This document shows, piece by piece, positions 5,280 to 61,775 of a stretch of 64,000 nt of DNA. Every line of letters starts with the position of its first letter. Positions within the stretch are counted from its first letter, which is position 1. The DNA comes from Candidatus Omnitrophota bacterium (GTDB lineage Bacteria > Omnitrophota > Gorgyraeia > Duberdicusellales > 4484-171). Below the pieces are notes generated by a model. It searched no databases and was not told where the DNA came from. It was given only the letters and a program-made list of their open reading frames with translations. Where the stretch lies: NCBI GenBank assembly GCA_024231025.1, contig JAAEQW010000256.1, positions 2,954 to 66,953 on the forward strand, written 5' to 3'. Made by a program: the position numbers and the translations under genes.

Positions 5280-6833
5280 ATGTTTAAAAAAATTATTAAA
5301 AATACCTCCATTTTGAGTCTGGGAACACTTATTTCTCGGGTTTTGGGGCTGGTGCGTCTTGTTCTAATATCTAATTTCTTTGGTACAGGAGCAATTTTAG
5401 AAGCTTTTATAGTGGCTTTTCGCCTTCCGAATCTTTTTCGTAGTGTATTTGGAGAGGGTTTTGGTGATGCGGTAGCAGTTCCGGTTCTTTCTGAATATCA
5501 AGACGATAAAGAAGAATTGTTTAAGATTGGCAACCATTTGATCTCACTTTTTACTGTAGTTTTATTAATTACAAGTTTGCTTGGTATGATTTTCGGCAAG
5601 TATTTAGTATCATTGATCGCTCCAGGTTTTATCGCCGATGGTGAAAAGTTTGCTTTGGCGGTGTCTTTTACTAGGATAACTTTTTTTTATCTGTTTTTTA
5701 TTGGATTGGCAGTTAATTTTACTTCAATACTTTATTCGTTGAAGAAGTTTTTTATTCCGGCGATAAACCCAGTTTTTTTAAATATTTCATTTATTATTGG
5801 CATAATATTTTTTGCTGATTCGCTACGAAAATATATACTTGTTATTTGTGTTTTAGTTGGAGGAATATTGCAGATTGTTTTCCCTTTTGTGGCGCTTAGG
5901 AGATCGGGATTTATTTTTAAATTTAGAATCAAGGAATGCTTTAAAGATAAGGTTATTTTGCGGATGGTAAAATTATTTTTACCCCGAGTTTGGTCGAGCG
6001 TAATCTACCATTTAAGTGTGATTGTTGACACGGTGTTTTCTTCATTAAGTGTGATTGTTGGGGTTGGGGCATTGGCGGCAATTACTTATGCCAATGTTTT
6101 GATACAATTGCCACTTGCTCTAATTGTTTTGCCGCTTACGCGCGTTGCGATTGTTGATTTATCTCTATATCACAAGCAATCTAAGATGGATGATTTTAAA
6201 AAGCTTTTTGTTTTTTCTTTTCAAAATATTGTTTTTTTCGTTGTGCCGATTACATTTGTTTTTCTTTTTTTATCAGAAGGCATAATCGATGTTCTTTTTA
6301 AAAGAGGTGAATTCGACGCACATTCTTTGGCGATTACTTCTTCGGTGTTTTTTTTCTATTCCTTTGGTTTATTTTTCTTTTGCATGACAAAGCTTTTTGT
6401 TAGCGCCTTTTACGCGCTTAAGAATACCGCAATCCCCGCTAAATTGGCGGCGCTATCACTGGTTGTTAATGTGATTTTAAGCGCAGCGCTGATGTTTCAT
6501 TTACGAATTGGCGGTGTAGCCCTTGCTAGTAGTTTAGCTGCAGTGTTTAATTGCTTTCTATTGTATAAGTGTTTGCTAAAACAAATTGGAGCTATTGATT
6601 GGCAAAACACCCCAGCGCAATTTGTAAAAGTAGTCGTGATCAGTCTTATGATTGGTTTTTTTTCAAAGATGCTTTGGGGCATTTTGCCTTGGAATAAATA
6701 TATTAATATGAGTGCGATTTTTATTATTGATGTATGTTTATTTTTTAGTAGTGGAATGATTTTTGGTTTGGGGCAGGCCGATTACTTAAAGAAGTGGCTA
6801 TTGAGGGCATGTAATTGCGAAGCTAAAACATAA
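5280..6833 (+). CDS. murJ: Lipid II flippase MurJ (MviN)
   Basis: 14-TM MOP-superfamily protein with the typical MurJ N-terminus (SILSLGTLISRVLGLVRLVLISNFFG). Conserved rpsT-murJ adjacency. Confidence 0.85.
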   Translation: MFKKIIKNTSILSLGTLISRVLGLVRLVLISNFFGTGAILEAFIVAFRLPNLFRSVFGEGFGDAVAVPVLSEYQDDKEELFKIGNHLISLFTVVLLITSLLGMIFGKYLVSLIAPGFIADGEKFALAVSFTRITFFYLFFIGLAVNFTSILYSLKKFFIPAINPVFLNISFIIGIIFFADSLRKYILVICVLVGGILQIVFPFVALRRSGFIFKFRIKECFKDKVILRMVKLFLPRVWSSVIYHLSVIVDTVFSSLSVIVGVGALAAITYANVLIQLPLALIVLPLTRVAIVDLSLYHKQSKMDDFKKLFVFSFQNIVFFVVPITFVFLFLSEGIIDVLFKRGEFDAHSLAITSSVFFFYSFGLFFFCMTKLFVSAFYALKNTAIPAKLAALSLVVNVILSAALMFHLRIGGVALASSLAAVFNCFLLYKCLLKQIGAIDWQNTPAQFVKVVVISLMIGFFSKMLWGILPWNKYINMSAIFIIDVCLFFSSGMIFGLGQADYLKKWLLRACNCEAKT

Positions 6834-22547: not shown

Positions 22548-22552
22548 TAATA

Positions 22553-22643
22553 ATATTACGTAGGGACAGGTTTTTAACCTGTCCTTTATAGAATTAAAAT
22601 ATTACGTAGGGACAGGTCGTGACCTGTCCGTTATAGAATTAAA
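22553..22643 (+). repeat. Two tandem copies of a roughly 46-bp unit, each carrying an 8-bp-stem hairpin (GGACAGGT...ACCTGTCC), in the etfB-etfA spacer
   Basis: Copy 1 is 22553-22598 and copy 2 is 22599-22643. The stems are identical and the loops differ (TTTTA vs CGTG). Confidence 0.7.
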
Positions 22644-22645
22644 AC

Positions 22646-23836: not shown

Positions 23837-24042
23837 GTTGTAACTTTCTGTTTTTCAAAGGGTTATGACTTTTTTTGCTTTTTTCTTGCATTCCGTGAAA
23901 GGATATGTTATAAATGAAGAACTGGATTTAGTAAGCGGTTTCACATTATTTGGAAAAATGAACTTATACTTATCAGGGGAGGGATCAGCTTATGTTGATT
24001 TGGTAAGGTCGTAAGTTCGCTTAACACAAATTGGAGCGAACA

Positions 24043-27000
24043 ATGATTTTACAATTACAAAGAAGACGGGCGTCGATTTCGTTTAGAGCAGTGGCAATAA
24101 TCGTTACCACTGTTTTTTTATTTTCTGTTTTTTCACTATACTTAAGCAAGTCACATCGGGTGTATGCATCAGCATTGCCTTATATGTCTGCACCGGCAAA
24201 GCTAGTTAGCACTAGTAGCACCTTTAACCCTCCTTTATTGCGTGGGATAAAACTTCATGCCGATAATCCATTTAAAATTGATTTTATAGTTGACCAGGGC
24301 GATTTTAGCCGGTCATCTAGTGAGTTAGAAGAAGAAACTAAGCGTTTAATTAAGTATTTTCTGGCTTCAATCACCATTCCGGAAGAGGATTTATGGGTTA
24401 ATCTTTCGCCTTATGAAAAAGATAGAATGGTTCCTAACGCCTTGGGTCTTACTGATATGGGCCGAGATCTTTTGGGGGAAGATTACGTTCTAAAACAATT
24501 AACCGCTTCCTTAACCTATCCGGATAGCCCTTTAGGGAAAAAGTTCTGGGATAAGGTTTATGAGCGCACCGAACAGCTCTATGGAACGACTAATATCCCT
24601 GCAAATACTTTCAGTAAAATTTGGATTATGCCGCAAAAGGCAGTGGTTTATGAAGACCGCAGTGGTGCCTTTGTTGCCGAGAGCCATTTGAAAGTTATGA
24701 TGGAGGCTGATTATTTTGCTGCGCAAAAGAATCAGCAGACCATAGACCATAGACTACAGACCACAGACCACAGACCAGAGACCAGAGGCCGTAAACCGGA
24801 CACCGTAACTGATGTTTCGGCTGCAATCATGAAAGATGTGATTTTGCCGGTAATCGAGGAAGAAATAAACACTGGTGCACAATTTGCTCACTTGCGTCAA
24901 ATTTATCACTCTTTAATTTTAGCGACATGGTTTAAAAAGAAATTAAAGCAGACCGCGCTTGAAAAAGCTTATATAGGTAAAAACAAGATAAAAGGCGCCG
25001 ACACCAGTGATCCGCAAATTAAAGAGAAAATTTACAACCAATACTTAGAAGCTTACACCAAAGGCGCATACAACTATATTCGCCGCGATCTCGACGTAAA
25101 AACAAATCGCCGTGTTAGTCGCCGCTACTACTCAGGCGGATTCACTACTGCCGGAGAAATGGATGAAGCATTTGATGCTAGGCCACTAGAGAGGCTTCCG
25201 GCCGGGCAAAGCCCGAGTGATTTTGATAACGGACCATCAACTCTTTTCCAGACTGATTTATCAGCTCTTTTAGGAGATGGTGAAGAAGTTAACATGAGTC
25301 GTCATTTTCGCACATCAGCACAAGCAGAAACAGTGACAACGGGGCTAATGAACGCATTAGAAAGCAAAGGAATAGTTTTTAGTCCAAAACAATGGCAGGG
25401 TTATGGTCATGCGGATGCATACACTCGTAATATGATAGGTAGAATTGTTACTGTAGTCGGGGAGGTAATAGATAATGATTCGTCAGATCCAATTAGTTTG
25501 TCTGCCCAAGACATGGCCTTTCAGCGCGAAAATGGAAGAGACCCGATTCAATTGCACTTGACGAAAGAAGATAAAGGTAATACGACTACGTTTTCAATTA
25601 CCTTTGTTAGTCAGAGTAACCAGGGTATTGTTGATATTGCGCTAGACAACGGTGGTCAAATTGTAGAAACTGATCATCGTCCAATTGCCTCTAATCGGAT
25701 GGCACGATTTAAAACCTGGGATCCAAAAGCTGCCCAAATGCTTGACTCGCTACAAAGATTAGAACCAACTGCCAATTTACTCGCGATAATTACCAATGGT
25801 CGACTTTTAGATTGGGTGCAGTTGCTTTGGAAGGGCGCGGTTCCGTCTTTAGATGAGCTAAAAAATTATACATTGGGTGATGTAGCTGATCATTTGAGTT
25901 GGCCAAGTTCGCTTACAGAAGGAATAGATGAGTTAATCAGCTCAATGAAAGCAGCGACTTTAATTGAATATGAGGAGATGGACGAAAATGGCGAAATGGT
26001 AAAAGTGACAAAAGAGTGGAGAGATCCCACAAATAGTTTAGCAAATAGGCTTAAAAAAGCGCAAAAGAGAAAAGATGCAATAGATAAAGAATTTGCTCCA
26101 GCGATAAAGCGGCTGGAAGCTCGCAGAAAGACAATAGCCGCGAGCGATGAAGGTGAAGAAGATAAAAAAAAGGCGATAGCCGAAGTGGATAAAGCGACTG
26201 CTATTGAAAAAAACAAGGCAGAAGCCCGAAAAAGGAGAATAGACATTAGCTTGGCTCGTGCAATCTCAAAGTATTCGGCGGCTCGGCTTTATCCGGGGCG
26301 CGAACCTCGCCTTTTCTTGCCAACACCAAAATACACTCTAGGCGAAATACAGGATTACCTGTCAGCTTTGTTAAATGAACCTGATGGAATTTCGACAAAA
26401 GTTGCGCAAGAAACAAGCGCAAGAGAAAAAAGGCTTGAGCTTTCAGGCAAAGCAGCTGAAATTTTGGTTAATGTATTGAGTAATGAGGGTGTAGAATTTC
26501 AACCAAAACGAGAATCCAGTGAACTTGCACCTACACCTCTTGAGCACGATGTTTACATCAAAGGCATAATTTCTCAAATTACTGCGATGCTTAATCGAGT
26601 AAAGGAAACAGACAGATTAACCCAAAGTGATTTACTCTACCAAGAAATTAATAGCAATAGTGTAATTAACCTAAACGTTGAAAGGGCGCCTAGCGAGCAA
26701 GGAACTGTATTGTCTGTTGCTTGGCATCGTACCAGTAGTAGCCCTGCCATTACGGATAACGCCCAGGGGGTAATTAATCTTACTATTTCAAATGAGGGCG
26801 AAATCACTACCTCTTTAGGGATTATTAAAAATGGTAAAGGGGGATTACCCGCAAGAACTTTTTCGCCAGAAAGCCCCAAAGGCCCAACCCCGGCAGATCG
26901 CCCATCATTACTGCCTGGTGGCTTCAACAGTCCCCCTGTGGTGGCCGGCAATAAGCCAAGCGATGATACTACAATAACAATTTCGCAAGATCCCCATGAA

Positions 27001-27747
27001 AAAAGTGGTGATTTAGCCGAAGTTTTAATTGACGCCTTAAAAAGCAAGGGAATAGCGTTTCAATTAAAAAGAGGTGCCAACGCAGTTAATAGTGGCGATT
27101 ATGCTGCTAAGATGAATAACGCTGTTAGCGAAATGTTTAGATGGGCAATAGCGACAGGATCTGGCGAATTATTTCCAGAAGATATGTTATTTCAAGGCAA
27201 TCATGGTGAAGATGTAATTAATTTAGCGGCTAACAGGAGTGTTAATCCTCAAGAGAAAATTACTGTTCGTTGGTATCGCAGGGGTGATCCTTCTGTGACT
27301 GATGATCAAGGGAGGGTTGATATTGTCATCTCAGAAGAGGGTCGAGTGAGTATTTTCCACCAGTTAATTAAGCCGCTTGACAGAAATGCCTTAGACGGTG
27401 CGCCTTTGGTTGGCGGTGGAGCAAGAACCTGGGGCGATGTTCTAGATTCTCCGGTATCAGAAGATAATGTGCCGTTTACCGAGCGTAACGGGGCGACAAT
27501 TCGGGTTAAGAAAAAGAAGTCACAAGTGGCTAAGAAGGAAATTAAAGGTAAAGGTAAGGGTAAGGACAGTTATGTTGGCGGTATCGATTTGGATACCGAT
27601 AATTGGGACGTTCAAGTTAAAGGTGGTGGAGCAGAGGTTTCCAGCTTTACGGATCTTCCTTTTGATGTTAAAAATTTGCGCGGGTTCACGCTTGAAATTT
27701 GTGATCGCAGCAGTGTTAACTCGGACGAATTGTTTGCCGTAAGATAG
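24043..27747 (+). CDS. Giant (about 1234 aa) signal-anchored protein of unknown function, paralog A. It has a conserved N-terminal domain shared with the 54668-58822 gene, internal repeat modules, and a Lys/Glu-rich coiled coil
   Basis: Long uninterrupted ORF with a GGAG Shine-Dalgarno 6 nt before the ATG at 24043 (the tracker start at 24031 is TTG). N-terminal TM helix. Residues ~45-375 align with the other giant ORF (ASALPYMSAP...WVNLSP.EKDR...GEDYVLKQLTASLTYP...RRYYSGG). Confidence 0.6.
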   Translation: MILQLQRRRASISFRAVAIIVTTVFLFSVFSLYLSKSHRVYASALPYMSAPAKLVSTSSTFNPPLLRGIKLHADNPFKIDFIVDQGDFSRSSSELEEETKRLIKYFLASITIPEEDLWVNLSPYEKDRMVPNALGLTDMGRDLLGEDYVLKQLTASLTYPDSPLGKKFWDKVYERTEQLYGTTNIPANTFSKIWIMPQKAVVYEDRSGAFVAESHLKVMMEADYFAAQKNQQTIDHRLQTTDHRPETRGRKPDTVTDVSAAIMKDVILPVIEEEINTGAQFAHLRQIYHSLILATWFKKKLKQTALEKAYIGKNKIKGADTSDPQIKEKIYNQYLEAYTKGAYNYIRRDLDVKTNRRVSRRYYSGGFTTAGEMDEAFDARPLERLPAGQSPSDFDNGPSTLFQTDLSALLGDGEEVNMSRHFRTSAQAETVTTGLMNALESKGIVFSPKQWQGYGHADAYTRNMIGRIVTVVGEVIDNDSSDPISLSAQDMAFQRENGRDPIQLHLTKEDKGNTTTFSITFVSQSNQGIVDIALDNGGQIVETDHRPIASNRMARFKTWDPKAAQMLDSLQRLEPTANLLAIITNGRLLDWVQLLWKGAVPSLDELKNYTLGDVADHLSWPSSLTEGIDELISSMKAATLIEYEEMDENGEMVKVTKEWRDPTNSLANRLKKAQKRKDAIDKEFAPAIKRLEARRKTIAASDEGEEDKKKAIAEVDKATAIEKNKAEARKRRIDISLARAISKYSAARLYPGREPRLFLPTPKYTLGEIQDYLSALLNEPDGISTKVAQETSAREKRLELSGKAAEILVNVLSNEGVEFQPKRESSELAPTPLEHDVYIKGIISQITAMLNRVKETDRLTQSDLLYQEINSNSVINLNVERAPSEQGTVLSVAWHRTSSSPAITDNAQGVINLTISNEGEITTSLGIIKNGKGGLPARTFSPESPKGPTPADRPSLLPGGFNSPPVVAGNKPSDDTTITISQDPHEKSGDLAEVLIDALKSKGIAFQLKRGANAVNSGDYAAKMNNAVSEMFRWAIATGSGELFPEDMLFQGNHGEDVINLAANRSVNPQEKITVRWYRRGDPSVTDDQGRVDIVISEEGRVSIFHQLIKPLDRNALDGAPLVGGGARTWGDVLDSPVSEDNVPFTERNGATIRVKKKKSQVAKKEIKGKGKGKDSYVGGIDLDTDNWDVQVKGGGAEVSSFTDLPFDVKNLRGFTLEICDRSSVNSDELFAVR
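24736..24784 (+). repeat. Heptanucleotide microsatellite [(C/T/G)AGAC(C/T)A]x7 inside the coding sequence of giant gene A
   Basis: Units cagacca, tagacca, tagacta, cagacca, cagacca, cagacca, gagacca. They encode TIDHRLQTTDHRPETR. Confidence 0.8.
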
Positions 27748-41997: not shown

Positions 41998-44071
41998 AGT
42001 TTATTTTTTATTCGGTATTCATAATCATCAACCAGTAGGTAATTTTGATCATGTTTTTGAATACGCCTATAAGCGTTGTTATTTTCCTCTTCTAGAGACT
42101 CTCGCCAATTTTCCTAAAATAAAATTTAGTGTACACATCAGCGGTCCCCTTTATGATTGGATCTTAAAAAATCGTAAAGAGTATGTAAGTCTTTTAAAGG
42201 AGATGGTTACTCGCGGCCAGGTTGAGATAATCAGCGGCGGATATTACGAACCGATTTTGCCTTTAATTTCCGATCGTGACAAAAAAGCTCAAATCCAAAA
42301 AATGAATGATTTCATTTCAAAAGAATTTAATTGCACCGCTAGTGGTCTTTGGCTTGCCGAGCGGGTTTGGGAGCCAAACTTACCAGCGATAATTAATCCT
42401 TGTGGATTAGATTATACTTTTTTAGATGATACTCATTTCCGTTTTGCCGGAATCAACAAGAATGAATTCACAGGTTATTATACAACTGAGGACCAGGCTT
42501 TTGGTTTGAAGATTTTTCCAATCAGCAAAGCGCTAAGATATAAAATACCTTTTTCAAGCGCGCAAGAGGGGATCGATTTGCTTAATTCGTTTGCTAGCGA
42601 AGAAGATGTGCTAGTTACATTTTTTGATGATGGAGAAAAATTTGGTCTTTGGCCGAATACTTATGATTGGGTGTATGAGAAGGGCTGGCTTAAAACATTT
42701 CTAACGTATCTTAGCGATTCATTAACTATTGAGACGATTAAGCCGAGTGAGGCAGCACTTAAATTTTCTTCCAGCGGAATAGTTTATTTGCCTACCGCCT
42801 CCTATGAGGAGATGGGGGAGTGGGTTTTATCTGCGGATAGTTTTAATACCTATGACAGATTGAATAACTTTTTAAAGAATCAAAATAAATTTGAAGAATT
42901 CAAAAATTTTGTGAGGGCAGGATTTTTTAGAAATTTTAATCGCAAATATCCGCGCCTTAATTACATGCACAAAAGAATGCTTTCGGTTAGCAAAAAGCTA
43001 CATGCGTATTTGAAAAATGGTGATAAGGCATTTACGAATTTATTTAAGGCCCAAACTAATTGCAGCTATTGGCACGGTGTTTTTGGGGGATTTTATTTGG
43101 GTCATATTCGCGGGGCAGTATATGAAAATCTTATTTGTGCCTTAAATCAACTGGATAAGAAAATTCAAAAGCACGATTTGGTAGTGGAGGAAGAAGATAT
43201 TGATTTAGATGGCGTAAAAGAAACAATTGTAAAAAATAAAAAAATGATCTGTTGTTTTTCACGTAAGGGTGGCACTCTTCTTGAATGTAGCCTGCGTAAT
43301 CCAGCAATCAATTTAACGAACACAATTACTCGTACGGTTGAATCCTATCATAAAAAAATTAAAGAAAATGTGAATGTTGATGCCTCTGTTGCTTCAATCC
43401 ATGATATAGTGGTTCAGAAAGACAAGGATTTAGATAAATTCCTGATTTACGATAATTATGAAAAAGTTAGCCTGATTGATCACCGCTTAGATAAAGATAT
43501 TACGATTGCCGATTTTAATACCGGAAATAAAATCACCACGTTTAGCGATAAAAATTATAACCTTTTAATAAAAAAAAGCACAAAGCAAGCTTCCCTAAAG
43601 TATAAATACGATTCGCAAACAATAAGTTTTACCAAAGAAGTAATCTTAAAAGGGGCATCTTCTTTCGCTGTTGAATATTCACTTAACAATTATTTAGAAA
43701 ATTGTGATTTTGGCGTTGAGTTTAATTTATTTTTACCTTCATTGAAAGATATTGTTGCTGTATCAGAAGGAAAATCTTCCAAAAGCGCTGGTCCTAAAGG
43801 CGTTACGATCAAAAAAGAAAATAAAAAAATATCTTTAAATGAGCCCAAAGTGTTTGATAGCTGTTGTTCGTTTGTTATAATAGGTAATCATAAAAGAATA
43901 AGTTTAGAGTTTGGTTGCGAAGACGCCTGTGTATTTACGATGCCGCTTTATTCGGTATCCTCATCTGAAGCGGGATTCGAAAAGGCGTATCAGCAATTGT
44001 CAGTTCTTTTTAAATTTTCAGGGGAGCGTAAAAAAATTCATTTTACCTTTAAGGTAAAAAAAGGGGAGTAA
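41990..44071 (+). CDS. Glycoside hydrolase family 57 enzyme (third paralog; alpha-amylase / 4-alpha-glucanotransferase-like)
   Basis: N-terminus VYFLFGIHNHQPVGNF. 693 aa with a C-terminal extension. Confidence 0.7.
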   Translation: MGKVYFLFGIHNHQPVGNFDHVFEYAYKRCYFPLLETLANFPKIKFSVHISGPLYDWILKNRKEYVSLLKEMVTRGQVEIISGGYYEPILPLISDRDKKAQIQKMNDFISKEFNCTASGLWLAERVWEPNLPAIINPCGLDYTFLDDTHFRFAGINKNEFTGYYTTEDQAFGLKIFPISKALRYKIPFSSAQEGIDLLNSFASEEDVLVTFFDDGEKFGLWPNTYDWVYEKGWLKTFLTYLSDSLTIETIKPSEAALKFSSSGIVYLPTASYEEMGEWVLSADSFNTYDRLNNFLKNQNKFEEFKNFVRAGFFRNFNRKYPRLNYMHKRMLSVSKKLHAYLKNGDKAFTNLFKAQTNCSYWHGVFGGFYLGHIRGAVYENLICALNQLDKKIQKHDLVVEEEDIDLDGVKETIVKNKKMICCFSRKGGTLLECSLRNPAINLTNTITRTVESYHKKIKENVNVDASVASIHDIVVQKDKDLDKFLIYDNYEKVSLIDHRLDKDITIADFNTGNKITTFSDKNYNLLIKKSTKQASLKYKYDSQTISFTKEVILKGASSFAVEYSLNNYLENCDFGVEFNLFLPSLKDIVAVSEGKSSKSAGPKGVTIKKENKKISLNEPKVFDSCCSFVIIGNHKRISLEFGCEDACVFTMPLYSVSSSEAGFEKAYQQLSVLFKFSGERKKIHFTFKVKKGE

Positions 44072-44077
44072 AATTCC

Positions 44078-44216
44078 AAATAACAAATCCCAAATCACAA
44101 ACAAACCACAATTCTAAATGTTCAAAATAACAAATAGAATCTATGATATTGTTTTGGATATTAAATTATTTGAATTTGGACATTGTTTGTAATTTGTTTT
44201 TTGTAACTTGTAATTT
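44078..44216. repeat. Palindromic AT-rich intergenic element, copy 1. Its CA-rich left arm and TG-rich right arm are inverted copies of the arms at 44505-44650, so the two copies bracket the DUF2934 gene
   Basis: Left arm CCAAATAACAAATCCCAAATCACAAACAAACCACAATTC. The right arm GAATTTGGACATTGTTTGTAATTTG is the reverse complement of 44525-44548. Confidence 0.7.
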
Positions 44217-44504
44217 TTGATAATACGAGGTAAAGAAAAAAAGGGGAGGTTTGAGATGCCGTTTCTAAAAAGGAAAAAAACAAAAGTGAAAGTATCCGCT
44301 AAAATCAAAGCGGCCGTGAAGAAAAGTGCAAAAATAGCTGCTAAAAAAACAATAGCTAAGAAGCCAAAGCTTGATGAAGCTCGTCTAAACCAAATGATTA
44401 AAGAAAGAGCTTATTATATTTGGGAAGAAAGGCAACGACCCAATGGGCAAGATTCTGATATCTGGGCGCAAGCTGAAAAAGATATGCATAAGAATATCAA
44501 ATAA
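44217..44504 (+). CDS. DUF2934-like small basic protein
   Basis: Lys/Ala-rich N-terminus and C-terminal motif RAYYIWEERQRPNGQDSDIWAQAE. Shine-Dalgarno AAGGGGAGGTTT. Confidence 0.5.
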   Translation: MIIRGKEKKGRFEMPFLKRKKTKVKVSAKIKAAVKKSAKIAAKKTIAKKPKLDEARLNQMIKERAYYIWEERQRPNGQDSDIWAQAEKDMHKNIK

Positions 44505-44650
44505 CAAATCACAAATTTCAAAATACAAACAATGTCCAATTGCCAAAAATCCAATGAACAAAAGGGTATTATTTTATTTTGTTTGATATTTTAGTTATTT
44601 GGAATTGTGGTTTGTTTGTGATTCGTGTATTGTGTATTGTAATTTTTTGA
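44505..44650. repeat. Palindromic AT-rich intergenic element, copy 2
   Basis: ATTTGGAATTGTGGTTTGTTTGTGATT (44600-44626) is the reverse complement of 44092-44118 with one mismatch. The same AAGGGGAGGTTT Shine-Dalgarno module follows. Confidence 0.7.
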
Positions 44651-44680
44651 CAGAGCGTACTTAAATAAGGGGAGGTTTAA

Positions 44681-45070
44681 ATGAACGCCAAAAAGAAAAA
44701 AGAGATCATTTTAACTACCGACAATAAAATTGGTAAATTGGAAGAGGTTAGCGCAGCGTTAAAGGCAGCCGACATCAATTTAACTAGCATTTGTGCTTAT
44801 TCTATGGAGGAGAAGGCAATTTTTTATATTACTGTGTGTGGTAGCGAAAAAGCCACGCAGGTTCTTTCAGGAATTGGCAGTGTTGAAACCAAAGAAGTTA
44901 TTGTCGTTGAAATGCCAAATGAAGTTGGTCAACTCCAAAGTTTAGCAGCTAAATTAAAAGATGCAAGCGTTGATCTTACTTATATTTATGGCACTACTTC
45001 AGGGGATGGGATAGCTCGGGTTGTACTTTCTTCCAGTGATAATGACAAGGCCCTAGAAGTTATTGCTTAA
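44681..45070 (+). CDS. Small tandem ACT-domain protein
   Basis: Two roughly 60-aa beta-alpha-beta-beta-alpha-beta-like halves (ILTTDNKIGKLEEVSAALKAADINL...; VVEMPNEVGQLQSLAAKLKDASVDL...). Confidence 0.45.
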   Translation: MNAKKKKEIILTTDNKIGKLEEVSAALKAADINLTSICAYSMEEKAIFYITVCGSEKATQVLSGIGSVETKEVIVVEMPNEVGQLQSLAAKLKDASVDLTYIYGTTSGDGIARVVLSSSDNDKALEVIA

Positions 45071-45078
45071 TTTTTACA

Positions 45079-46284
45079 ATGCAGATTGAGTTCCCTCATT
45101 ATTTTTTATGGGGTGCGGCCACATCCAGCTATCAGACTGAAGGGGGCAACTTAAATTCTGATTGGAGTGACTGGGAAAAAAGCAGAAAGCTCCAGCCAGC
45201 CGCTGACGCCTGCAAGCATTATCAACAGTTTCCGCAGGATTTTCAATTAGCATCCGACCTCGGTTTAAAGGCATTAAGATTTTCTATAGAGTGGTCGAGA
45301 ATTTGTCCGCGCCCAGGCGAGGTTTGCCAACGCGAATTAAGCCACTATAAAGCTGTAATCAAATCTTTAAAAGATAATGGATTGAAACCGTTTCTTACGT
45401 TGCATCACTTTACTAATCCGAGGTGGTTTGCCCATAGCGGCGGTTGGCTAAATTCCAAAAATATTGATTATTTTTTGCAATATCTTTCTGTAACTGCGCA
45501 GGCCTTAAAGGAAGATGTTGATTATTGGTTAATTTTTAATGAACCGCTAGTTTACTTATTTAATGGCTACATAAAGGGTATTTGGCCGCCTGGGAAAACT
45601 TCTTTGCCCATCGCTATAAGAGCGTTCAAAAACATTATATCTGCATACAAAACAGGTTATTGGGAAATAAAAAATATATGTAAGCATAATCCTTCTGTTG
45701 CGCAAGTGTCTTTGGCAAAACATATGATAGCCTTCTCACCTTGTCCAAATTCTAAATTGGGCGGATTATCGGCTGCACTTAGAGATAAGCTATTTAATAC
45801 ATCGCTTTGTGCCTATTTAAAGAAAAATAAATGCTTAGATTTTTTGGCGTTAAACTATTATTACAAAGAATATACCAAATTTAGCGGTCCATTAGGAGAA
45901 GAGTGCTCGCATAAGCACAAAGAGCGCAAAAATTATCTTGGTTGGAATATTTATCCGCAGGGACTTTACCAGATGCTTATAAGATCGAAGAAATTAAACC
46001 TACCGATAATGATTACCGAAAATGGCACCGCTGAGGAAAGCTCCGAAATGTATCAGGACTATATGGTAAAACACTTAAAGGCTATTGCAGATGCAATAGC
46101 TGATGGAGTAGATGTAAGAGGTTATTTTTGGTGGTCATTAATTGATAATTTTGAGTGGGATAAGGGTTTTGAGCCCCGGTTTGGTTTGGCGCATGTTGAC
46201 TATAGTACTTTTGCGAGAAAATTAAAGCCTTTTGCTTTTAGGTATGCTAAAATATGTAAAGAAAACATGATGACCTATGATTAA
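45079..46284 (+). CDS. Glycoside hydrolase family 1 beta-glucosidase
   Basis: N-terminal FLWGAATSSYQTEGG, acid/base motif LIFNEP, and nucleophile motif ITENG. Confidence 0.85.
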   Translation: MQIEFPHYFLWGAATSSYQTEGGNLNSDWSDWEKSRKLQPAADACKHYQQFPQDFQLASDLGLKALRFSIEWSRICPRPGEVCQRELSHYKAVIKSLKDNGLKPFLTLHHFTNPRWFAHSGGWLNSKNIDYFLQYLSVTAQALKEDVDYWLIFNEPLVYLFNGYIKGIWPPGKTSLPIAIRAFKNIISAYKTGYWEIKNICKHNPSVAQVSLAKHMIAFSPCPNSKLGGLSAALRDKLFNTSLCAYLKKNKCLDFLALNYYYKEYTKFSGPLGEECSHKHKERKNYLGWNIYPQGLYQMLIRSKKLNLPIMITENGTAEESSEMYQDYMVKHLKAIADAIADGVDVRGYFWWSLIDNFEWDKGFEPRFGLAHVDYSTFARKLKPFAFRYAKICKENMMTYD

Positions 46285-47050
46285 AGAAGAACTAGTAACT
46301 ATACTGGCGAATATTCCTCCATTTAATAAACTAAATCGCAAAGGTAATTTAGAATTTGCCCGCATTTGCGAAGTTAAGGAATATCAAAACGCGCAAACTA
46401 TCTACAGAGAAGGAGATGCACCAGGGTATTTTTATCTTCTTTTGCGAGGTAGAGTAGTTGCTCTTACCAGTGATAGCGGCATAGATTCCGAGATAGAGTT
46501 GTTAAAGCGTGGCACTTCTTTTGGGGTAATATCTCTTTTTACTGACGAGCCGCATTCAGTAACAACACAATCAATAGAAGATTCTATTATTATAAGAGTA
46601 GAAAGAAGCGCTTTTAAAGGCTTTTTAGAGAAATATCCGGTAATATCGTTAGATTTTTCTCGAATCCTTTCGTCAAGGGTAAAACGGCGTAAAAGTCCCA
46701 AAAAGATTTTTCAATGCAAAAGAATAGGTGTCATCGGATATCACGCATCAGGAAAAACAAACTATACTATTAATCTCAGTCGACAATTAAAAAAGCAAAC
46801 AAAAAAGAATGTTATTTGCGTAGAAATACGTGCAAAAGATGATTTTACTACACCGTCTTTAATTAATGCAGATTGTCGACCGCTAGTGTTGAAAAATTTC
46901 AATGAGGACCAACTCTGCGACTATATTGCGGTCGATGAAGTTGACCATCTGTTGGTGCAGGTTGATAGCGGAAGTCGTTTTTTGCGATTCTTAATCGTCT
47001 TTCTGAGAGTTATCATTTTGTTATATGTGAGTTATCGTGTAAATTACTGA
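46277..47050 (+). CDS. Cyclic nucleotide-binding domain protein; possibly the N-terminal module of a cNMP-regulated patatin phospholipase split from the next ORF by a frame change
   Basis: cNMP-binding beta-roll (YREGDAPGYFYLLLRGRVVA...FGVISLF). The downstream patatin ORF's frame is open back to 46969 and overlaps this ORF's tail by about 80 nt. Confidence 0.55.
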   Translation: MIKEELVTILANIPPFNKLNRKGNLEFARICEVKEYQNAQTIYREGDAPGYFYLLLRGRVVALTSDSGIDSEIELLKRGTSFGVISLFTDEPHSVTTQSIEDSIIIRVERSAFKGFLEKYPVISLDFSRILSSRVKRRKSPKKIFQCKRIGVIGYHASGKTNYTINLSRQLKKQTKKNVICVEIRAKDDFTTPSLINADCRPLVLKNFNEDQLCDYIAVDEVDHLLVQVDSGSRFLRFLIVFLRVIILLYVSYRVNY

Positions 47051-47088: not shown

Positions 47089-48132
47089 TTGCACCTAATC
47101 TTTTTGCCAATTAAAGAAGATCTCGCAAAGGGGGGCAAATTTATAAGTGATTTAAGCGAAAGAGAACTTCTTACTAGGGAGAAAATAAGAGTAATTATCA
47201 ATGAGTTTAGCCAAGGACAAAAGCTAGATTGCGAAAAGACCAAAGCACTAAAGCATCCGGTATATGCAACAATACCTAAATCTGACTCACCGCACTACCA
47301 TAAAGTTTTTAAAAGAATTGCTCGCCAAATTGGAGAAGTAAGGCTAGGCGTTGCGTTAGGGAGTGGTGGTTCCTATGGTTTTGCCCATATTGGTGTGTTG
47401 GAAGTATTAGAAGAGAATAATATAGATATCGATATCATATGTGGCTCAAGCATGGGGTCGTTGGTTGCTGCGATGTGGGCGGCGGGATTTAGCGTCGATA
47501 AGATGAAGCAAGTTGCGGCTAATTTCGGAAAAAAATTAAACTTGTTTTCTTTTCCGGGGTTCTATTTTCCTTTTAAAGGAATTATTAAAGCTAAACGTTC
47601 GGAGAAAATTTATAAGGAAATTTTTGGTGGTCTAACATTTCATGATTTAAAACATGATCTGAAATTAGCTTCATTTGATTTTTATAAGAGAAAGGCAGCT
47701 GTTTTAGATGAGGGATTGCTTTATAAGGCAGTAGCTGCGAGTTGTGCTATTCCAGGTGTGTTTGAGCCGGTAAAAATGAAAAAAAACCTCATGCTGGATG
47801 GCGGAGTATTAAACCCTTTACCTAGTAAAATTCTTTTAAACTACGGTGTGAATAAAATAATTGCTATAAATGTAACCCCACCGTTGGAGAAAGTTGCTCT
47901 TCGTCAGAAAATCAAAGGTAAATGGCATATTTTTGATTTTATTTTTGGCACAATCGAGACTATGCAACGTGAATTTATTGATGCGGCACTAAAAGTGTCT
48001 GATGTTGTGATCCATCCTGTTTTTGAGGCGACCGATTGGGCCCATTTTGAAAATGTCGATGAATATATTGAAGCAGGAAGAAAAGCTGCCCTCGGAAAAC
48101 TCAATGACATAAAGGAGTTAAGTGAGCGATAA
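47089..48132 (+). CDS. Patatin-like phospholipase
   Basis: Oxyanion hole GSGGSYGFAHIG, serine lipase motif GSSMGS, and the catalytic Asp region (LMLDGGVLNPLP). The listed start is TTG. Confidence 0.75.
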   Translation: MHLIFLPIKEDLAKGGKFISDLSERELLTREKIRVIINEFSQGQKLDCEKTKALKHPVYATIPKSDSPHYHKVFKRIARQIGEVRLGVALGSGGSYGFAHIGVLEVLEENNIDIDIICGSSMGSLVAAMWAAGFSVDKMKQVAANFGKKLNLFSFPGFYFPFKGIIKAKRSEKIYKEIFGGLTFHDLKHDLKLASFDFYKRKAAVLDEGLLYKAVAASCAIPGVFEPVKMKKNLMLDGGVLNPLPSKILLNYGVNKIIAINVTPPLEKVALRQKIKGKWHIFDFIFGTIETMQREFIDAALKVSDVVIHPVFEATDWAHFENVDEYIEAGRKAALGKLNDIKELSER

Positions 48133-54574: not shown

Positions 54575-54605
54575 TAAATAATTCTTGCAAGAAAATAAGG
54601 TTTGT
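54575..54605. repeat. 31-bp direct repeat copy 1 (TAAATAATTCTTGCAAGAAAATAAGGTTTGT), containing the perfect palindrome TTCTTGCAAGAA. Lies between the trmI-like start and the 3' end of giant gene B
   Basis: Identical to 58966-58996. Confidence 0.85.
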
Positions 54606-54667: not shown

Positions 54668-57600
54668 TTACATCGATAACTTTTTAAATAGATCGGTGAT
54701 TTCCTTTGAACCAAGTATTTTGTAGCCGAATCCGGGAAAATCCTTAATTGTTTGTTCGGAGGCCTTGTAAGTATGGAAGACCTTTAAACCTTTGCCTTTT
54801 ACAGTTATATTGCCTCTATCTGTTAAGTCAACGCCTCCAAGGGTGTCGCGCTCACCTTGATAGTTACTGTCTTGCCCGTATTCCTGTTTGATCCCCTCTA
54901 ATGCATCAGAGGTTGTACTTATGACTTCAACATCAGCCATATTTAAAGTTTTCAACATTTCCTCCAATGTTTCAGAAGAGTTCTCAATGAGAAGAGCCAA
55001 AGCTATATTTGAAATGAGACCCAGATCCTCTAATTCATCTTTCAAATCCCAGGGTGCTTCAGCCGATCCTTGAGCAAGAGATTCACCAAATAAATCAGAT
55101 AAGCGCTCTTCTTCATCGTTATCAATTCCAGAAAGGTCATGACCTTCTTGGCGAAGGTGTCTTATAAAAGCGTGAAATGTTTCATGACCGTCACGAAATC
55201 TCTTAGCAAAGTTAAGATCGATTTCTTTAGGGTCTTTATTAAGGCGCTTGGCTAGTTCAGGTATTTGATCTTCTAATTCTTCGTCGGAGGTGTAAATAGT
55301 TTGTTTACCGGTTGCTAAATTTTCAACCATCCAGCCAAAAGATTTTCCACCAAGCATCAACGGTTTCGCAATAACTTGCATCTGGCGCAGAATTGTTTTA
55401 GCCAGCGCTTTGTTTCCATTGGGGTGACTTTTCATAATTCCTGCTGCTTGAGGGATTGATTCTAAATATTCATGAGAGTAAGCAAAGCGGTATCCTTGGG
55501 CTCTATGAGCATGAGTTGCACCATCTTTAAAGCGGGCGTCTGTGGCTTTTTCAAAAGCAGCATTTATCGGACTGTTATTATAGTTATCCGAGGCTAAAGC
55601 TATTGCGGTGAGTCCGTCAATTACTTCTTTTTGTGCTAGAAGATTATGTATATTTTGTGCGCTTAAAAGTGCACACAATGCCTCAATTACTTTGTCGGCA
55701 CCGTTGTTGTTGTCGATAACATATTGAATTGCCTGAGGTAAAACTTTTTTTGCTGAATCTAGAGTATCAGATCCACCGTGTTTGCCACGTAGAAGATGTG
55801 AAAGAGCAATAGCAATATCCTCACTACCCCCTCGGATAATTGAATATGCATCATCGCTGGCAAGAAGATATCTTACTTCTTCTTCGCGGGTTTCCGGTTG
55901 CCAGCCTATTGCTTTAAGGCCTTGGGCAGAATTGAGACCAAAATTTTTGCTCTGATTACCTAATCCATGGCTTAGGGTTGAGGTGACGACGGCTCCAACG
56001 TCGTTAGGAAGACTCTTTTTTTGTGTTTTAGCTAGGGCAGCGCTAATGTAAAGAATAGCGAATTCTCTTTTTCTATCGTCTTTTTCATAAATAGGACGTC
56101 TGTAAACGTCTTTTCCGGGACCAATAATTTGAGCCAACCCAACAGGATTATGTCTGAGATAATTTTCGTAATCTGTTTCTTCGCCTCGAACGATCTGATA
56201 TAGTAAATCTAATCCACCCGGTACATCATTAATTAACTCCATCAATTTGGCTTCAGTGCTTTCGTCATAAAATATGTACCTATTATCGATGCCGATAGAC
56301 CCTTTGAAAATTTCAATAATTGCTTTTTTAGGGTCGGAAGGTAGCGCTAATGATTCTTTTATTGTGTATCCGGCTAGGGCGAGAGTCGCGGTACCCGCAA
56401 TACCTCCTCCAAGTTTTTTAAGAAAGTCACGTCGCGGCATACTCATGGTGTATGCTTGTTGCCCGGCTGCTCGCAGGCGTTCTTTAGTTTCTGCCATTTC
56501 CGCAGGAGTGCTTGATTTAACGATTATATCAACACCGAATCGCTGCTTGATTATTTTATCCAATTCGTAGGGGTCCTTGTTGTCGCTCAGATTTTGGTTT
56601 TGCAAGTATTCCCAGAGGTCACTTATTAGCGAAAGTCCGTTTTGTGATAAGTGAATGTTAATTTGTGCCTCCAAAGCGCTTATTCTTTCTTCATGTTGGG
56701 GCGGAATCTTATTGCGCCCTAGGGCCCAAGAAATCGCAAAGATGTCGGCTAATTTTTCATTATGTTCAAATCCAATAAGTTCAAAAATGAGGTGAGCGGT
56801 TTCATGACCGTCAATAAAACGAATTGCCATTTCAGGGGTAACCGTTACATCAGTTATTCCCAAACCCTCAAGAAGTTCTTGGAAATCTTGAATATATTCC
56901 TCAATAGTTTTATCGTTATGATGAATTGTTATACTGCCGTCAGCGCCGGGTACAAATAATCCCTGTAGATTGTCATTTAGCATTTTTTCCATCGCCTTTG
57001 TGCCTTCTGATCCAGATGCACCATCATTCTCAACGGGTTCAATAGATATTGATTCATCTGATACCCCTTCGCTGTCTTGAGTCCAGGTAACCTTAACTTG
57101 GCGGCCGCGATACCATGCCAATTGACTTAAAATTCTTTTTTTCTGCTCATCGGAAAGTGCCTCATTCTTTTCAACAGTATCCATAAGTTCTTCAGCTGTA
57201 TCTCTAAAATCAGCGTTGATGGTTACCAATACAATGTGAAATAGAAAAAACCCTGGCTTTGATTCTTCTTCAATCGCTATCGATTCATCTAATACCCCTT
57301 CGCTGCCTTGAGTCCAGGTAATTTTAACTTCATTCTTGCCAAGCTTTTTCAGATTTTCTAATATTATCTCCTTTTGCTTATCAGAAAGTGCCTCATTCTT
57401 TTTGATATCTTCCATAAGTTCTTCAGCTGTGCCTTTAAGATTGGCTTTTATGATCATTATTGGAGAGGTAAATATAACAGCACCTCGCTGATTATTATCT
57501 TCATAGACTACCTCTTGCTCGATGTGTGTTTCTTCTGATAGAGGCAGTGGTTCAATTTTGGCCATGTTTTTTGGGGTTGAAGCACAGGCGATTTCCAGTC

Positions 57601-58822
57601 CACCTGCGACTAAAACAACTGCAAGGTTAGTTAAAGGGTTTTTTTTCAATTTCTCTGCAACTTTACCAGATTTTCCAGCTAATGGTTGTCGACCTTTTTT
57701 TACAACATTGCCGGTTTTTTTAGCAAATTTGACACCGCCAGAGTAATAGCGGCGATTGATGTGTTTTTTGGAGGATGGGTCAAAATCTTTTTTGATGTAA
57801 TCGTAGACACCTTTTTTGTATGCTTGAAGGTATTGATCGTAAATTTTATTTTTTAATTCAGGGTCATTATGTTTTATGCTGTCTATCTTTTTCTGATCAG
57901 CGGAAAGTTGAGTTACAATATGTTCTTTTAGCTTTTGCTTAAACCAGGTAGCTAAAAGTAATGAGTGGTAAACTTGGCGGAGATGTGAGAAATTCTTACC
58001 ATAATTTACATCACGTTCGATTTCGGGCAAAACCTCTTCCTTAAGTATTTCTGAGGTTATTTCGTGTATTTTTTCTTTTTGTCCGGCGCTTGCTTTAGGC
58101 GATTGGCGCAGATGACTTTGGTTTTCCATTGCGAGATAATCTTGTTCCGACATTACCTTAAGATAGCTCTCAGTTATAATTGCTTTGTCGTCATCTTCGT
58201 ATATTGTGGCACTTTGGGGAACAATCCAAACTTTATTGAAGGTGTCTATTGGAATTTTAATTGTACCGAAAAGCTCGCTGGCTTTAGCATAAATTTTTTG
58301 CCAGTATTGTTTGCCGATTTTATTTTCAGGATAAGTTAAAGAGGCTGTTAATTGTTTTAGGACATAATCTTCACCAAGCATATCCGCGCCCATATCGGTT
58401 TGGGCGAGTGTTTCAGGAATGACGCGATCTTTTTCGTGAGGAGAAAGATTAACCCAAAGGTCGTCTTCGGGCATAGTTAACGCGGCAAGAAAATAGCGGA
58501 TTAGTGTGTTGCTTTCTTCTTTTAATTTTTCTTTACCGAAATTGCTATTTCCCGCATCAACAATGAATTCAAATTTAAAAGGGTCATCGCCAAATACTTT
58601 AATTCCTCGCAGTATTGGTGCATCAAACGCAACGCTTGCATCAATTAGCTTGGTGGGGGCGGACATGTAGGGCAGGGCAGAGGCGTAGGCTGACGATGTT
58701 TGCAGGGCCGGTGTGCGCATAATCAATGTGCTAATTCCCGCAAGCAGCACCCCTGATGCGATAAAAACTGCTAAAATCTTAAAGGAAATCGACCCTTTTC
58801 TAAGTACTGATAGTTTATGCAT
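54668..58822 (-). CDS. Giant (1384 aa) signal-anchored protein of unknown function, paralog B. It has a conserved N-terminal domain shared with 24043-27747, a tandem ~75-aa repeat, two DGHETxH motifs, and an internal Tat-like motif
   Basis: Uninterrupted ORF with an N-terminal TM helix (ILAVFIASGVLLAGISTLIM). Residues ~45-365 align with giant A. Confidence 0.6.
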   Translation of the reverse strand: MHKLSVLRKGSISFKILAVFIASGVLLAGISTLIMRTPALQTSSAYASALPYMSAPTKLIDASVAFDAPILRGIKVFGDDPFKFEFIVDAGNSNFGKEKLKEESNTLIRYFLAALTMPEDDLWVNLSPHEKDRVIPETLAQTDMGADMLGEDYVLKQLTASLTYPENKIGKQYWQKIYAKASELFGTIKIPIDTFNKVWIVPQSATIYEDDDKAIITESYLKVMSEQDYLAMENQSHLRQSPKASAGQKEKIHEITSEILKEEVLPEIERDVNYGKNFSHLRQVYHSLLLATWFKQKLKEHIVTQLSADQKKIDSIKHNDPELKNKIYDQYLQAYKKGVYDYIKKDFDPSSKKHINRRYYSGGVKFAKKTGNVVKKGRQPLAGKSGKVAEKLKKNPLTNLAVVLVAGGLEIACASTPKNMAKIEPLPLSEETHIEQEVVYEDNNQRGAVIFTSPIMIIKANLKGTAEELMEDIKKNEALSDKQKEIILENLKKLGKNEVKITWTQGSEGVLDESIAIEEESKPGFFLFHIVLVTINADFRDTAEELMDTVEKNEALSDEQKKRILSQLAWYRGRQVKVTWTQDSEGVSDESISIEPVENDGASGSEGTKAMEKMLNDNLQGLFVPGADGSITIHHNDKTIEEYIQDFQELLEGLGITDVTVTPEMAIRFIDGHETAHLIFELIGFEHNEKLADIFAISWALGRNKIPPQHEERISALEAQINIHLSQNGLSLISDLWEYLQNQNLSDNKDPYELDKIIKQRFGVDIIVKSSTPAEMAETKERLRAAGQQAYTMSMPRRDFLKKLGGGIAGTATLALAGYTIKESLALPSDPKKAIIEIFKGSIGIDNRYIFYDESTEAKLMELINDVPGGLDLLYQIVRGEETDYENYLRHNPVGLAQIIGPGKDVYRRPIYEKDDRKREFAILYISAALAKTQKKSLPNDVGAVVTSTLSHGLGNQSKNFGLNSAQGLKAIGWQPETREEEVRYLLASDDAYSIIRGGSEDIAIALSHLLRGKHGGSDTLDSAKKVLPQAIQYVIDNNNGADKVIEALCALLSAQNIHNLLAQKEVIDGLTAIALASDNYNNSPINAAFEKATDARFKDGATHAHRAQGYRFAYSHEYLESIPQAAGIMKSHPNGNKALAKTILRQMQVIAKPLMLGGKSFGWMVENLATGKQTIYTSDEELEDQIPELAKRLNKDPKEIDLNFAKRFRDGHETFHAFIRHLRQEGHDLSGIDNDEEERLSDLFGESLAQGSAEAPWDLKDELEDLGLISNIALALLIENSSETLEEMLKTLNMADVEVISTTSDALEGIKQEYGQDSNYQGERDTLGGVDLTDRGNITVKGKGLKVFHTYKASEQTIKDFPGFGYKILGSKEITDLFKKLSM
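57050..57470 (-). repeat. Intragenic tandem duplication (about 230-bp unit x2, roughly 80% identical) in giant gene B, encoding two roughly 75-aa modules
   Basis: Protein repeats TAEELMEDIKKNEALSDKQKEIILENLKKLGKNEVKITWTQGSEGVLDESIAIE and TAEELMDTVEKNEALSDEQKKRILSQLAWYRGRQVKVTWTQDSEGVSDESISIE. Confidence 0.8.
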
Positions 58823-58965: not shown

Positions 58966-58996
58966 TAAATAATTCTTGCAAGAAAATAAGGTTTGT
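58966..58996. repeat. 31-bp direct repeat copy 2 (identical to 54575-54605), in the divergent region between giant gene B and apgM. It embeds the apgM -35
   Basis: Exact 31/31 match. TTGCAA (58976-58981), 17-nt spacer, TAAACT (58999-59004), ATG at 59014 (leaderless candidate). Confidence 0.85.
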
Positions 58997-61502: not shown

Positions 61503-61599
61503 ATAAAACGAAAAACTTAGAACGAAAAACTAAAAATCATAGCGTAAAATTTAAAACCATATAAGAATTAAGATGTAAAAAATGATTGCATGAATAACC

Positions 61600-61775
61600 A
61601 AGATACAAGATGCAATGACCCCGCCTGCCGGCGGGCAGGCAAACAATAACCAATAATCAATTTTTAATAACCAAACGGTTTGATAATTGAGTATTGAAAT
61701 TTGTTTGTAGCTTGTAACTTGCCTGCCCGCCGTATTGGCAGGCGGGTATCTTGTTTCTTGTATTGAAAATAACCA
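61600..61775. repeat. Palindromic AT-rich intergenic element, copy 3, with two embedded GC-rich hairpins that share identical stem halves
   Basis: Left arm CCAAGATACAAGAT; the right arm ATCTTGTTTCTTGT is its inverted copy. Hairpin 1 is GCCTGCC-ggcg-GGCAGGC (61633-61650). Hairpin 2 is GCCTGCC-cgccgtatt-GGCAGGC (61730-61752). Confidence 0.65.

Follow-up and report, generated by a model that had tools for sequence, protein, structure and literature searches.

The 64-kb window analysed here (contig JAAEQW010000256.1 of a Candidatus Omnitrophota bacterium, positions 2,954 to 66,953) raises the question of why a small DUF2934 gene should be enclosed by two long palindromic elements, termed A (about 44070-44217) and B (about 44493-44648), that resemble inverted copies of each other. 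The original prediction had read this arrangement as a candidate invertible or cruciform cassette or, alternatively, as a reiterated operator array. We consider it probable that A and B are instead two old, diverged copies of a non-coding palindromic repeat family of ~150-200 bp, scattered in the intergenic spacers of one Omnitrophota sub-clade and comparable to miniature inverted-repeat transposable elements (MITEs) and ERIC sequences, with the inverted bracketing of the gene an incidental by-product and not a device.

Each element consists of a CA-rich 5' arm followed by a TG-rich 3' arm, and the proposal that two related palindromes with inverted cores flank the DUF2934 gene was borne out, the palindromes themselves being weak. 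Element A (44072-44217 or, in another delimitation, 44070-44217), in minus orientation, was recognized by its inverted arms (50 nt, 72% complementary, with a 48-nt spacer) and by a profile match described below, and begins 1 nt past the stop codon of a GH57 gene. Element B (44497-44648 or, likewise, 44493-44647), recognized by the same profile, lies in plus orientation, and its left arm extends over the end of the DUF2934 gene, covering the stop codon and the two codons before it. Starts at, or within a few bases of, an upstream stop codon were noted at 44069-44072 and 44497-44504 of the window and at 11435-11440 of L031 (L-numbers denote contigs or loci of other Omnitrophota throughout). The best conserved block of the family, box 1, is found in A at 44093-44119 (plus strand, in the CA-rich form AATCACAAACAAACCACAATTC...) and agrees at 26 of 27 positions with the reverse complement of its inverted counterpart in B at 44597-44623 (minus strand; plus-strand reading GGAATTGTGGTTTGTTTGTGATT). 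Box 2 (TTGGACATTGTTTGTA, 44176-44191 in A, plus strand) is a variant arm that pairs imperfectly with box 1; it matches the reverse complement of 44524-44539 in B (minus strand) at 16/16 positions, or 21/24 when extended. Both repeats had originally been placed 1-6 nt out of register, where read literally they contain 17 mismatches in 27 and 18 in 24. A 22-mer of box 1 has two sites in the window, with none expected from 100 shuffles.

An 18-mer from box 1 was searched against 185,579 species genomes, the source genome not being among them. The 18 matches obtained are about the number due to chance, and 17 of them were chance-like singles in unrelated phyla; the only real one, in another Omnitrophota metagenome-assembled genome (MAG; L011), falls inside a long CA/TG palindrome. 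A metagenome scan with a 20-mer returned three matches, of which two were chance and the third added L027. The box 1 22-mer is identical in L011 and L027. A second L011 copy was found 737 nt from the first in direct orientation; the two sit either side of a 152-aa gene, orf152, and their common 143-nt core is 97% identical without gaps. Among the relatives, copies number two each in L011 and L031 and one each in L030, L027 and L032, and the sites are unrelated intergenic junctions (leuA|orf152, orf152|aroE and ilvB|ilvN). Housekeeping proteins of L031 are no more than 67-72% identical to those of the window, the PGM-AK-LeuA-like gene order being common to both. Full-length copies are ~200 nt long with discrete ends and a terminal inverted repeat, GAAATAACCAAG...CTTGGTTATTTC. 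The search for further copies with a MITE-like distribution, proposed alongside the original prediction, therefore gave a positive answer in the form of dispersed copies on other Omnitrophota contigs.

A profile built from four elements, all from outside the window, was then scanned against it. B was recovered at 44498-44648 on the plus strand (E = 1e-13; 4.1e-12 on the minus strand), the usual orientation of the family relative to transcription, and A at 44072-44211 on the minus strand (E = 4.4e-12; plus strand 2.6e-9), the opposite of the consensus orientation of the family. Scores for A and B were 32-47 bits, against a best of 11 bits in 20 shuffled windows, and nothing else in the window scored strongly. 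The arms of A, B, L011 and L027 align to one architecture of ~55 nt, which reads TTGTAATTTTGGAATTG(TGG)TTTGTTTGTGATTTGTTATTTGTATATTGTAATTT from the centre to the outside. They are made solely of T and G (or C and A), arranged in degenerate 7-nt units that each finish with TTG (autocorrelation z=11.8 at lag 7 and z=5.6 at lag 14). The right arm of B is 89% identical over 47 nt to the first L011 copy. The open reading frames (ORFs) within the two window elements A and B are no longer than 58 aa (minus strand) and have no match to any family. Rfam returned only chance-level matches to snoRNAs and plant miRNA precursors, far below the gathering threshold; plasmid blastn and viral contig scans gave no match to the family, and no description of such repeats in Omnitrophota was found in the literature.

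For comparison of orthologous junctions, relatives were fetched via the leuA gene beside the L011 copies. Their LeuA identities are 94% (L029), 93% (L030), 89% (L031) and 79% (L033 and L034), and the gene order leuA-orf152-aroE is common to all of them. The leuA|orf152 junction is filled by the element in L011 and L031, holds an unrelated hairpin in L029 and L033 and an unrelated 64-nt spacer in L030, and measures 14 nt in L034. At orf152|aroE the element is present in L011 and L030, L029 again has an unrelated hairpin, and the spacers are 9 nt in L031, 28 nt in L033 and 29 nt in L034. A fifth copy, at ilvB|ilvN in L031, lies inside another palindrome. Identity between the two copies of L011, taken at full length, is 91%, compared with 86% between the copies that L011 and L030 have at the same site. 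Small two-hairpin modules are nested in the second copy of L011 and in that of L030, and L027 has a similar module at the loop position.

The two-hairpin modules (~60-100 nt; L011 2760-2843 and about 2532-2590, L030 2337-2435, L027 30-100) appear to be a separate family targeting the CA/TG elements. L027 was at one stage considered as a solo TG-arm promoter; this was dropped, given the module at its loop position and a contig that ends 100 nt upstream, so that the other arm may simply be missing. An extra heptad bulge lies on different sides in L031 and L011.

The description of A and B as inverted copies of each other stands in part. In inverted alignment they agree over 71 nt at 77% and over 74 nt at 73%, but because both elements are palindromic they are nearly as alike in direct orientation (global alignment scores, inverted versus direct, of 131 versus 105 in one run and 136 versus 122 in another). 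The pair is in fact a mosaic, with the inner boxes inverted and the outer ends direct; this, or the change of bulge side, could reflect exchange between palindrome arms. Identity between A and B is 71-72%, and that of A or B to copies in other genomes is 64-73%. The two are therefore no closer to each other than to foreign copies, which rules against a recent local duplication; the simple promoter duplication that had been named as the fallback explanation does not hold beyond the Shine-Dalgarno module.

That module was correctly recognized as shared: AAGGGGAGGTTT is identical ahead of the DUF2934 gene (44241-44252, plus strand) and of the downstream ACT-domain gene (44667-44678, plus strand), and GGGGAGGTTT is found at these two Shine-Dalgarno modules and nowhere else in the window. 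The leader module reads GTAATTTTTGA at 44210-44220 and GTAATTTTTTGA at 44639-44650, with the common form GTAATTTTT(T)GA. From sequence comparison, only the 12-nt Shine-Dalgarno module looks locally shared between the two spacers. The DUF2934 gene had been drawn from 44217 to 44504. This ORF exists and is readable from a TTG at 44217, but the likely start is the ATG at 44256, directly downstream of the Shine-Dalgarno sequence GGGGAGG (44243-44249), which gives a gene of 82 aa at 44256-44504 on the plus strand, between A and B (Pfam PF11154, E=8.9e-13). The deposited protein (P0024, 100% identity and coverage) is also 82 aa long.

A and B belong to a dispersed family with filled and empty sites, nested insertions and the potential to form hairpins. 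The filled and empty sites, the nesting and the within-genome similarity point to turnover by insertion. Copies would arrive in, and vanish from, the short spacers that separate co-directional genes. Two of these lie near each other when the gene between them is small, and two copies of opposite orientation would thus have come to bracket the DUF2934 gene. In L011 it is orf152 that is bracketed, by direct copies, yet this gene holds the same position in relatives without copies.

Folding was compared for A, B and their relatives. RNA folds gave z-scores of -3.8/-3.9 for A and -1.2/-3.2 for B, and folds with DNA parameters were barely better than shuffles (A -0.8/-2.6, B -1.2/-1.6); with flanks included, z was -1.5 and +0.3. 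Full-length relatives fold strongly (z -6 to -9; -7 to -9 with DNA parameters). A covariation check on four sequences found little variation and two compensatory pairs.

Several observations weigh against a mobile repeat family as the explanation of A and B. The two are weak hairpins that cover only positions 30-172 of the profile and lack the outer terminal repeats, and the 64 kb holds only A, B and one distant relative, element C. No consistent target-site duplication flanks the four copies examined (L011c1, L030s2, L031s1 and L031n), the filled and empty sites being too diverged for base-exact comparison, and no autonomous partner or transposase was seen in the window or the fetched loci. 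The Shine-Dalgarno module AAGGGGAGGTTT is shared in direct orientation, which the element does not explain. The 22-nt box 1 is identical across genomes despite ~72% protein identity, which hints at constraint beyond selfish spread. The RNA of the coding strand is no more stable than that of the opposite strand in 5/8 copies; with no strand preference and only two compensatory pairs, there is no sign of selection at the RNA level, and the effects on expression proposed below are purely inferred.

As to those effects, A and B are probably co-transcribed with their neighbours and would then fold into long, imperfect hairpins whose 3' arm is rich in U. Their most likely role would be inter-cistronic punctuation, that is, partial termination and/or processing by a double-strand-specific RNase. 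The TG arm may in addition offer a weak promoter-like sequence, TTGTGA-N18-TAATTT, which occurs ~30 nt upstream of the Shine-Dalgarno sequence in A, B and L011. As a promoter candidate this sequence was set aside: it is poor beside the canonical TTGACA-17-TATAAT promoters of the genome, and the promoter scan did not report it.

A wider reading, doubtful when taken as a whole, would make the CA/TG elements one family in a clade-wide class of mobile operon punctuation. Such elements may be hairpins of heptad units, always A-rich in the 5' arm and T-rich in the 3' arm, that insert right after stop codons; they may act as bidirectional attenuators or processing sites that give the outward-facing box 1 arm to the next gene; and their asymmetric cores may flip inside the element, which would account for both the A/B mosaic and the side of the L031 bulge.

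The alternative that survives best is that the elements are punctuation but resident, namely bidirectional terminator or processing hairpins with promoters, evolved or retained junction by junction. Every copy with genes on both sides does lie between co-directional genes, the full-length copies, from three independent sites, are all oriented alike with respect to transcription, and A and B end in T5/T6 runs. An A-rich 5' arm with a T-rich 3' arm was found in 20/25 long inverted repeats from several unrelated families in the Omnitrophota loci; all strong arm skews have this sense, which is the polarity of bidirectional terminators, the families being few and not independent. We nevertheless regard resident punctuation as unlikely. 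It fits poorly with presence and absence at orthologous junctions, with nesting and with the higher similarity within genomes, and a terminator scan of 43800-44900 gave 0 terminator-like sites (the stems are AT-rich and 35-75 nt long). The lack of strand asymmetry in RNA stability and the poor promoter match also count against it.

An operator array for a single DNA-binding protein was the second suggestion of the original prediction; the protein would regulate the flanking genes and might conceivably be the basic DUF2934 protein itself. The reiterated 7-nt units, the identity of box 1 across genomes and the Lys/Ala-rich N-terminal half of the DUF2934 protein, whose DUF2934 domain is C-terminal, would all suit it. 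However, close relatives differ in whether a given operon junction holds an element, and the element is therefore not needed to regulate the genes there. The genes flanked have no function in common (they are glycogen genes and genes for branched-chain and for aromatic amino acids), elements on related contigs adjoin other genes with no DUF2934 gene seen beside them, and no close DUF2934 homologue was found in the database. An operator array is thus distinctly unlikely.

Highly improbable, in our judgement, is the invertible cassette, in which A and B would recombine at their inverted boxes and so flip the DUF2934 gene or toggle read-through into the ACT operon. The inverted, near-identical blocks (26/27 and 16/16) lie ~480 bp apart, and inverted inner parts with direct outer ends are the trace to be expected of a past crossover inside the elements. 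The identical blocks are nevertheless short, with overall arm identity of 73-77%, and Pfam scans of 45 window ORFs, four of which had no match, assigned housekeeping roles to most of them and revealed no recombinase, integrase, invertase or transposase domain. In L011 the family brackets a different gene in direct orientation, and elsewhere it is present as single copies at other junctions. An inversion would also carry the gene together with its own Shine-Dalgarno sequence and upstream arm, and hence would have no ON/OFF logic. Scarcely credible is a DNA cruciform serving replication or transcription, which the inverted-repeat form of each element and the strong DNA-parameter folds of full-length relatives might recommend: cruciform extrusion requires near-perfect arms and a short spacer, whereas A and B have arms of 72-77% complementarity, spacers of 48 nt within an element and ~435 nt between the two, and DNA folds (z only -0.8 to -2.6) near those of shuffles.

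Returning to a dispersed repeat family as the preferred explanation, its members were compared with known repeat systems. In cultured bacteria, small palindromes repeated between genes are a familiar feature. The ERIC/IRU sequences of Enterobacteria and Yersinia are 127-bp imperfect palindromes, and the Omnitrophota elements share with them a length of 125-200 bp, imperfect palindromy, a position in transcribed spacers inside operons in either orientation, variants with internal insertions, the lack of coding capacity and the lack of a clear target-site duplication. They differ in having no sequence similarity to ERIC/IRU, AT-rich arms of 7-nt tandem units, a terminal repeat of their own (GAAATAACCAAG) and a host in an uncultured phylum of the PVC group. 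Correia elements (CREE/NEMIS) of Neisseria are likewise small MITE-like palindromes between genes, with filled and empty sites among relatives and subtypes that are either long or short; promoter-like hexamers facing outward and hairpins of double-stranded RNA have been proposed for them. Their terminal repeats measure 26 bp, and they have a TA duplication at the target site as well as an IHF site; in the Omnitrophota family no duplication or IHF consensus was found, and the promoter matches are weak. Like REPINs (REP doublets), the family shows two inverted arms with a short spacer, a hairpin of ~100 nt, extragenic dispersal and copies homogenized within a genome. A REP arm is itself a short GC-rich palindrome, however, and REPINs are mobilized by RAYT transposases, whereas the Omnitrophota arms, being of T/G or C/A only, are unable to pair with themselves; the fetched DNA showed no RAYT or IS200-type gene and the window no Y1-transposase domain. 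Inverted repeats that flank a few hundred base pairs recall DNA invertons (fimS, hin and the Bacteroides promoter switches), from which this locus differs in lacking a recombinase in the window, in having repeats from a dispersed family and not a dedicated pair, and in a bracket that is not conserved. Integron attC sites are a poor fit, as the ends AAATAAC / GTTATTT do not conform to RYYYAAC ... GTTRRRY cores, no integrase was found, and the elements are located inside conserved biosynthetic operons, unlike integron cassette arrays. In common with MITEs the elements are short (146-200 nt), non-coding and dispersed, with filled and empty sites; terminal repeats are seen in the full-length copies but not in A and B, and no consistent target-site duplication was found beside the four copies checked.

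The CA/TG elements thus constitute a new family of a well-known kind, and the heptad arms, the A-rich/T-rich polarity and the highly conserved 22-nt box are the sole features that could lead to novelty. Recognition of the family stops such loci being misread as switches or regulatory arrays, provides a marker for strain-level structural variation in these MAGs and marks sites at which breaks or collapses may occur in assembly.

The distant relative mentioned above, element C (61592-61765, plus strand), is a strong 170-nt hairpin (fold z=-7.75) whose arms both carry a GC-rich clamp, one the mirror of the other. It gave weak profile matches (E=6e-4), its left terminus GAATAACCAAGATACAAG is family-like, and on this evidence it would belong to the same superfamily as A and B. 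It lies between the aspartate kinase (AK) gene and the LeuA-like gene, a junction that measures 330 nt in the window versus 13 nt in L031, 57 nt in L033 and 107 nt in L034.

Other hairpin repeats were encountered in the window and in the related contigs. Between two ETF genes of the window (22548-22645) is a tandem pair of ~47-nt units, each with the hairpin GGGACAGGT....ACCTGTCC, that resemble the two-hairpin modules nested in the L011, L030 and L027 elements. L011 carries a second, GC-richer palindromic family at 36-132 and 5500-5596, with copies of 97 nt that are 94% identical and are each an internal palindrome. In L029, L030, L031, L033 and L034, many of the operon spacers contain long hairpins, some nested in one another, that are composed of short tandem units such as CAGAAGA and CACAGAT; examples are L031 8809-8904, L029 8802-8910, L029 7605-7808 and L034 7900-8112.

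Pfam assignments place A and B in a run of genes that are all on the plus strand. Upstream are three GH57 glycogen-type genes, the last ending at 44071, and 3' of the DUF2934 gene the order is ACT, GH1 glycosidase, cNMP-binding and patatin. The spacers either side of the DUF2934 gene, at 184 and 176 nt, are among the longer ones in a compact window. In a search of 5.8 billion proteins the DUF2934 protein matched only itself, and nothing relevant on DUF2934 was found in the literature. The ACT-domain gene (44681-45070, plus strand) heads an ACT-GH1-cNMP/patatin-DUF3108-LpxA cluster that is kept in other Omnitrophota; in its relatives L001-L007, neither a DUF2934 gene nor a CA/TG element was found upstream of ACT.

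Within this cluster, the cNMP-binding and patatin domains are separate ORFs in the window (46277-47050, 257 aa, and 47089-48132, 347 aa) and are fused as one protein of 623-629 aa in five other Omnitrophota contigs; the separation could result from gene splitting, a frameshift or faulty assembly. Elsewhere in the window, a 1238-aa ORF (24031-27747) has no Pfam match at E<=1e-5, and a 1384-aa ORF on the minus strand (54668-58822) has none at E<=1e-3. Both spacers flanking the 1384-aa gene contain an identical 30-mer, AAATAATTCTTGCAAGAAAATAAGGTTTGT, on the plus strand (54576-54605 and 58967-58996; 0 expected by chance), which includes TTGCAA, a -35-like hexamer.

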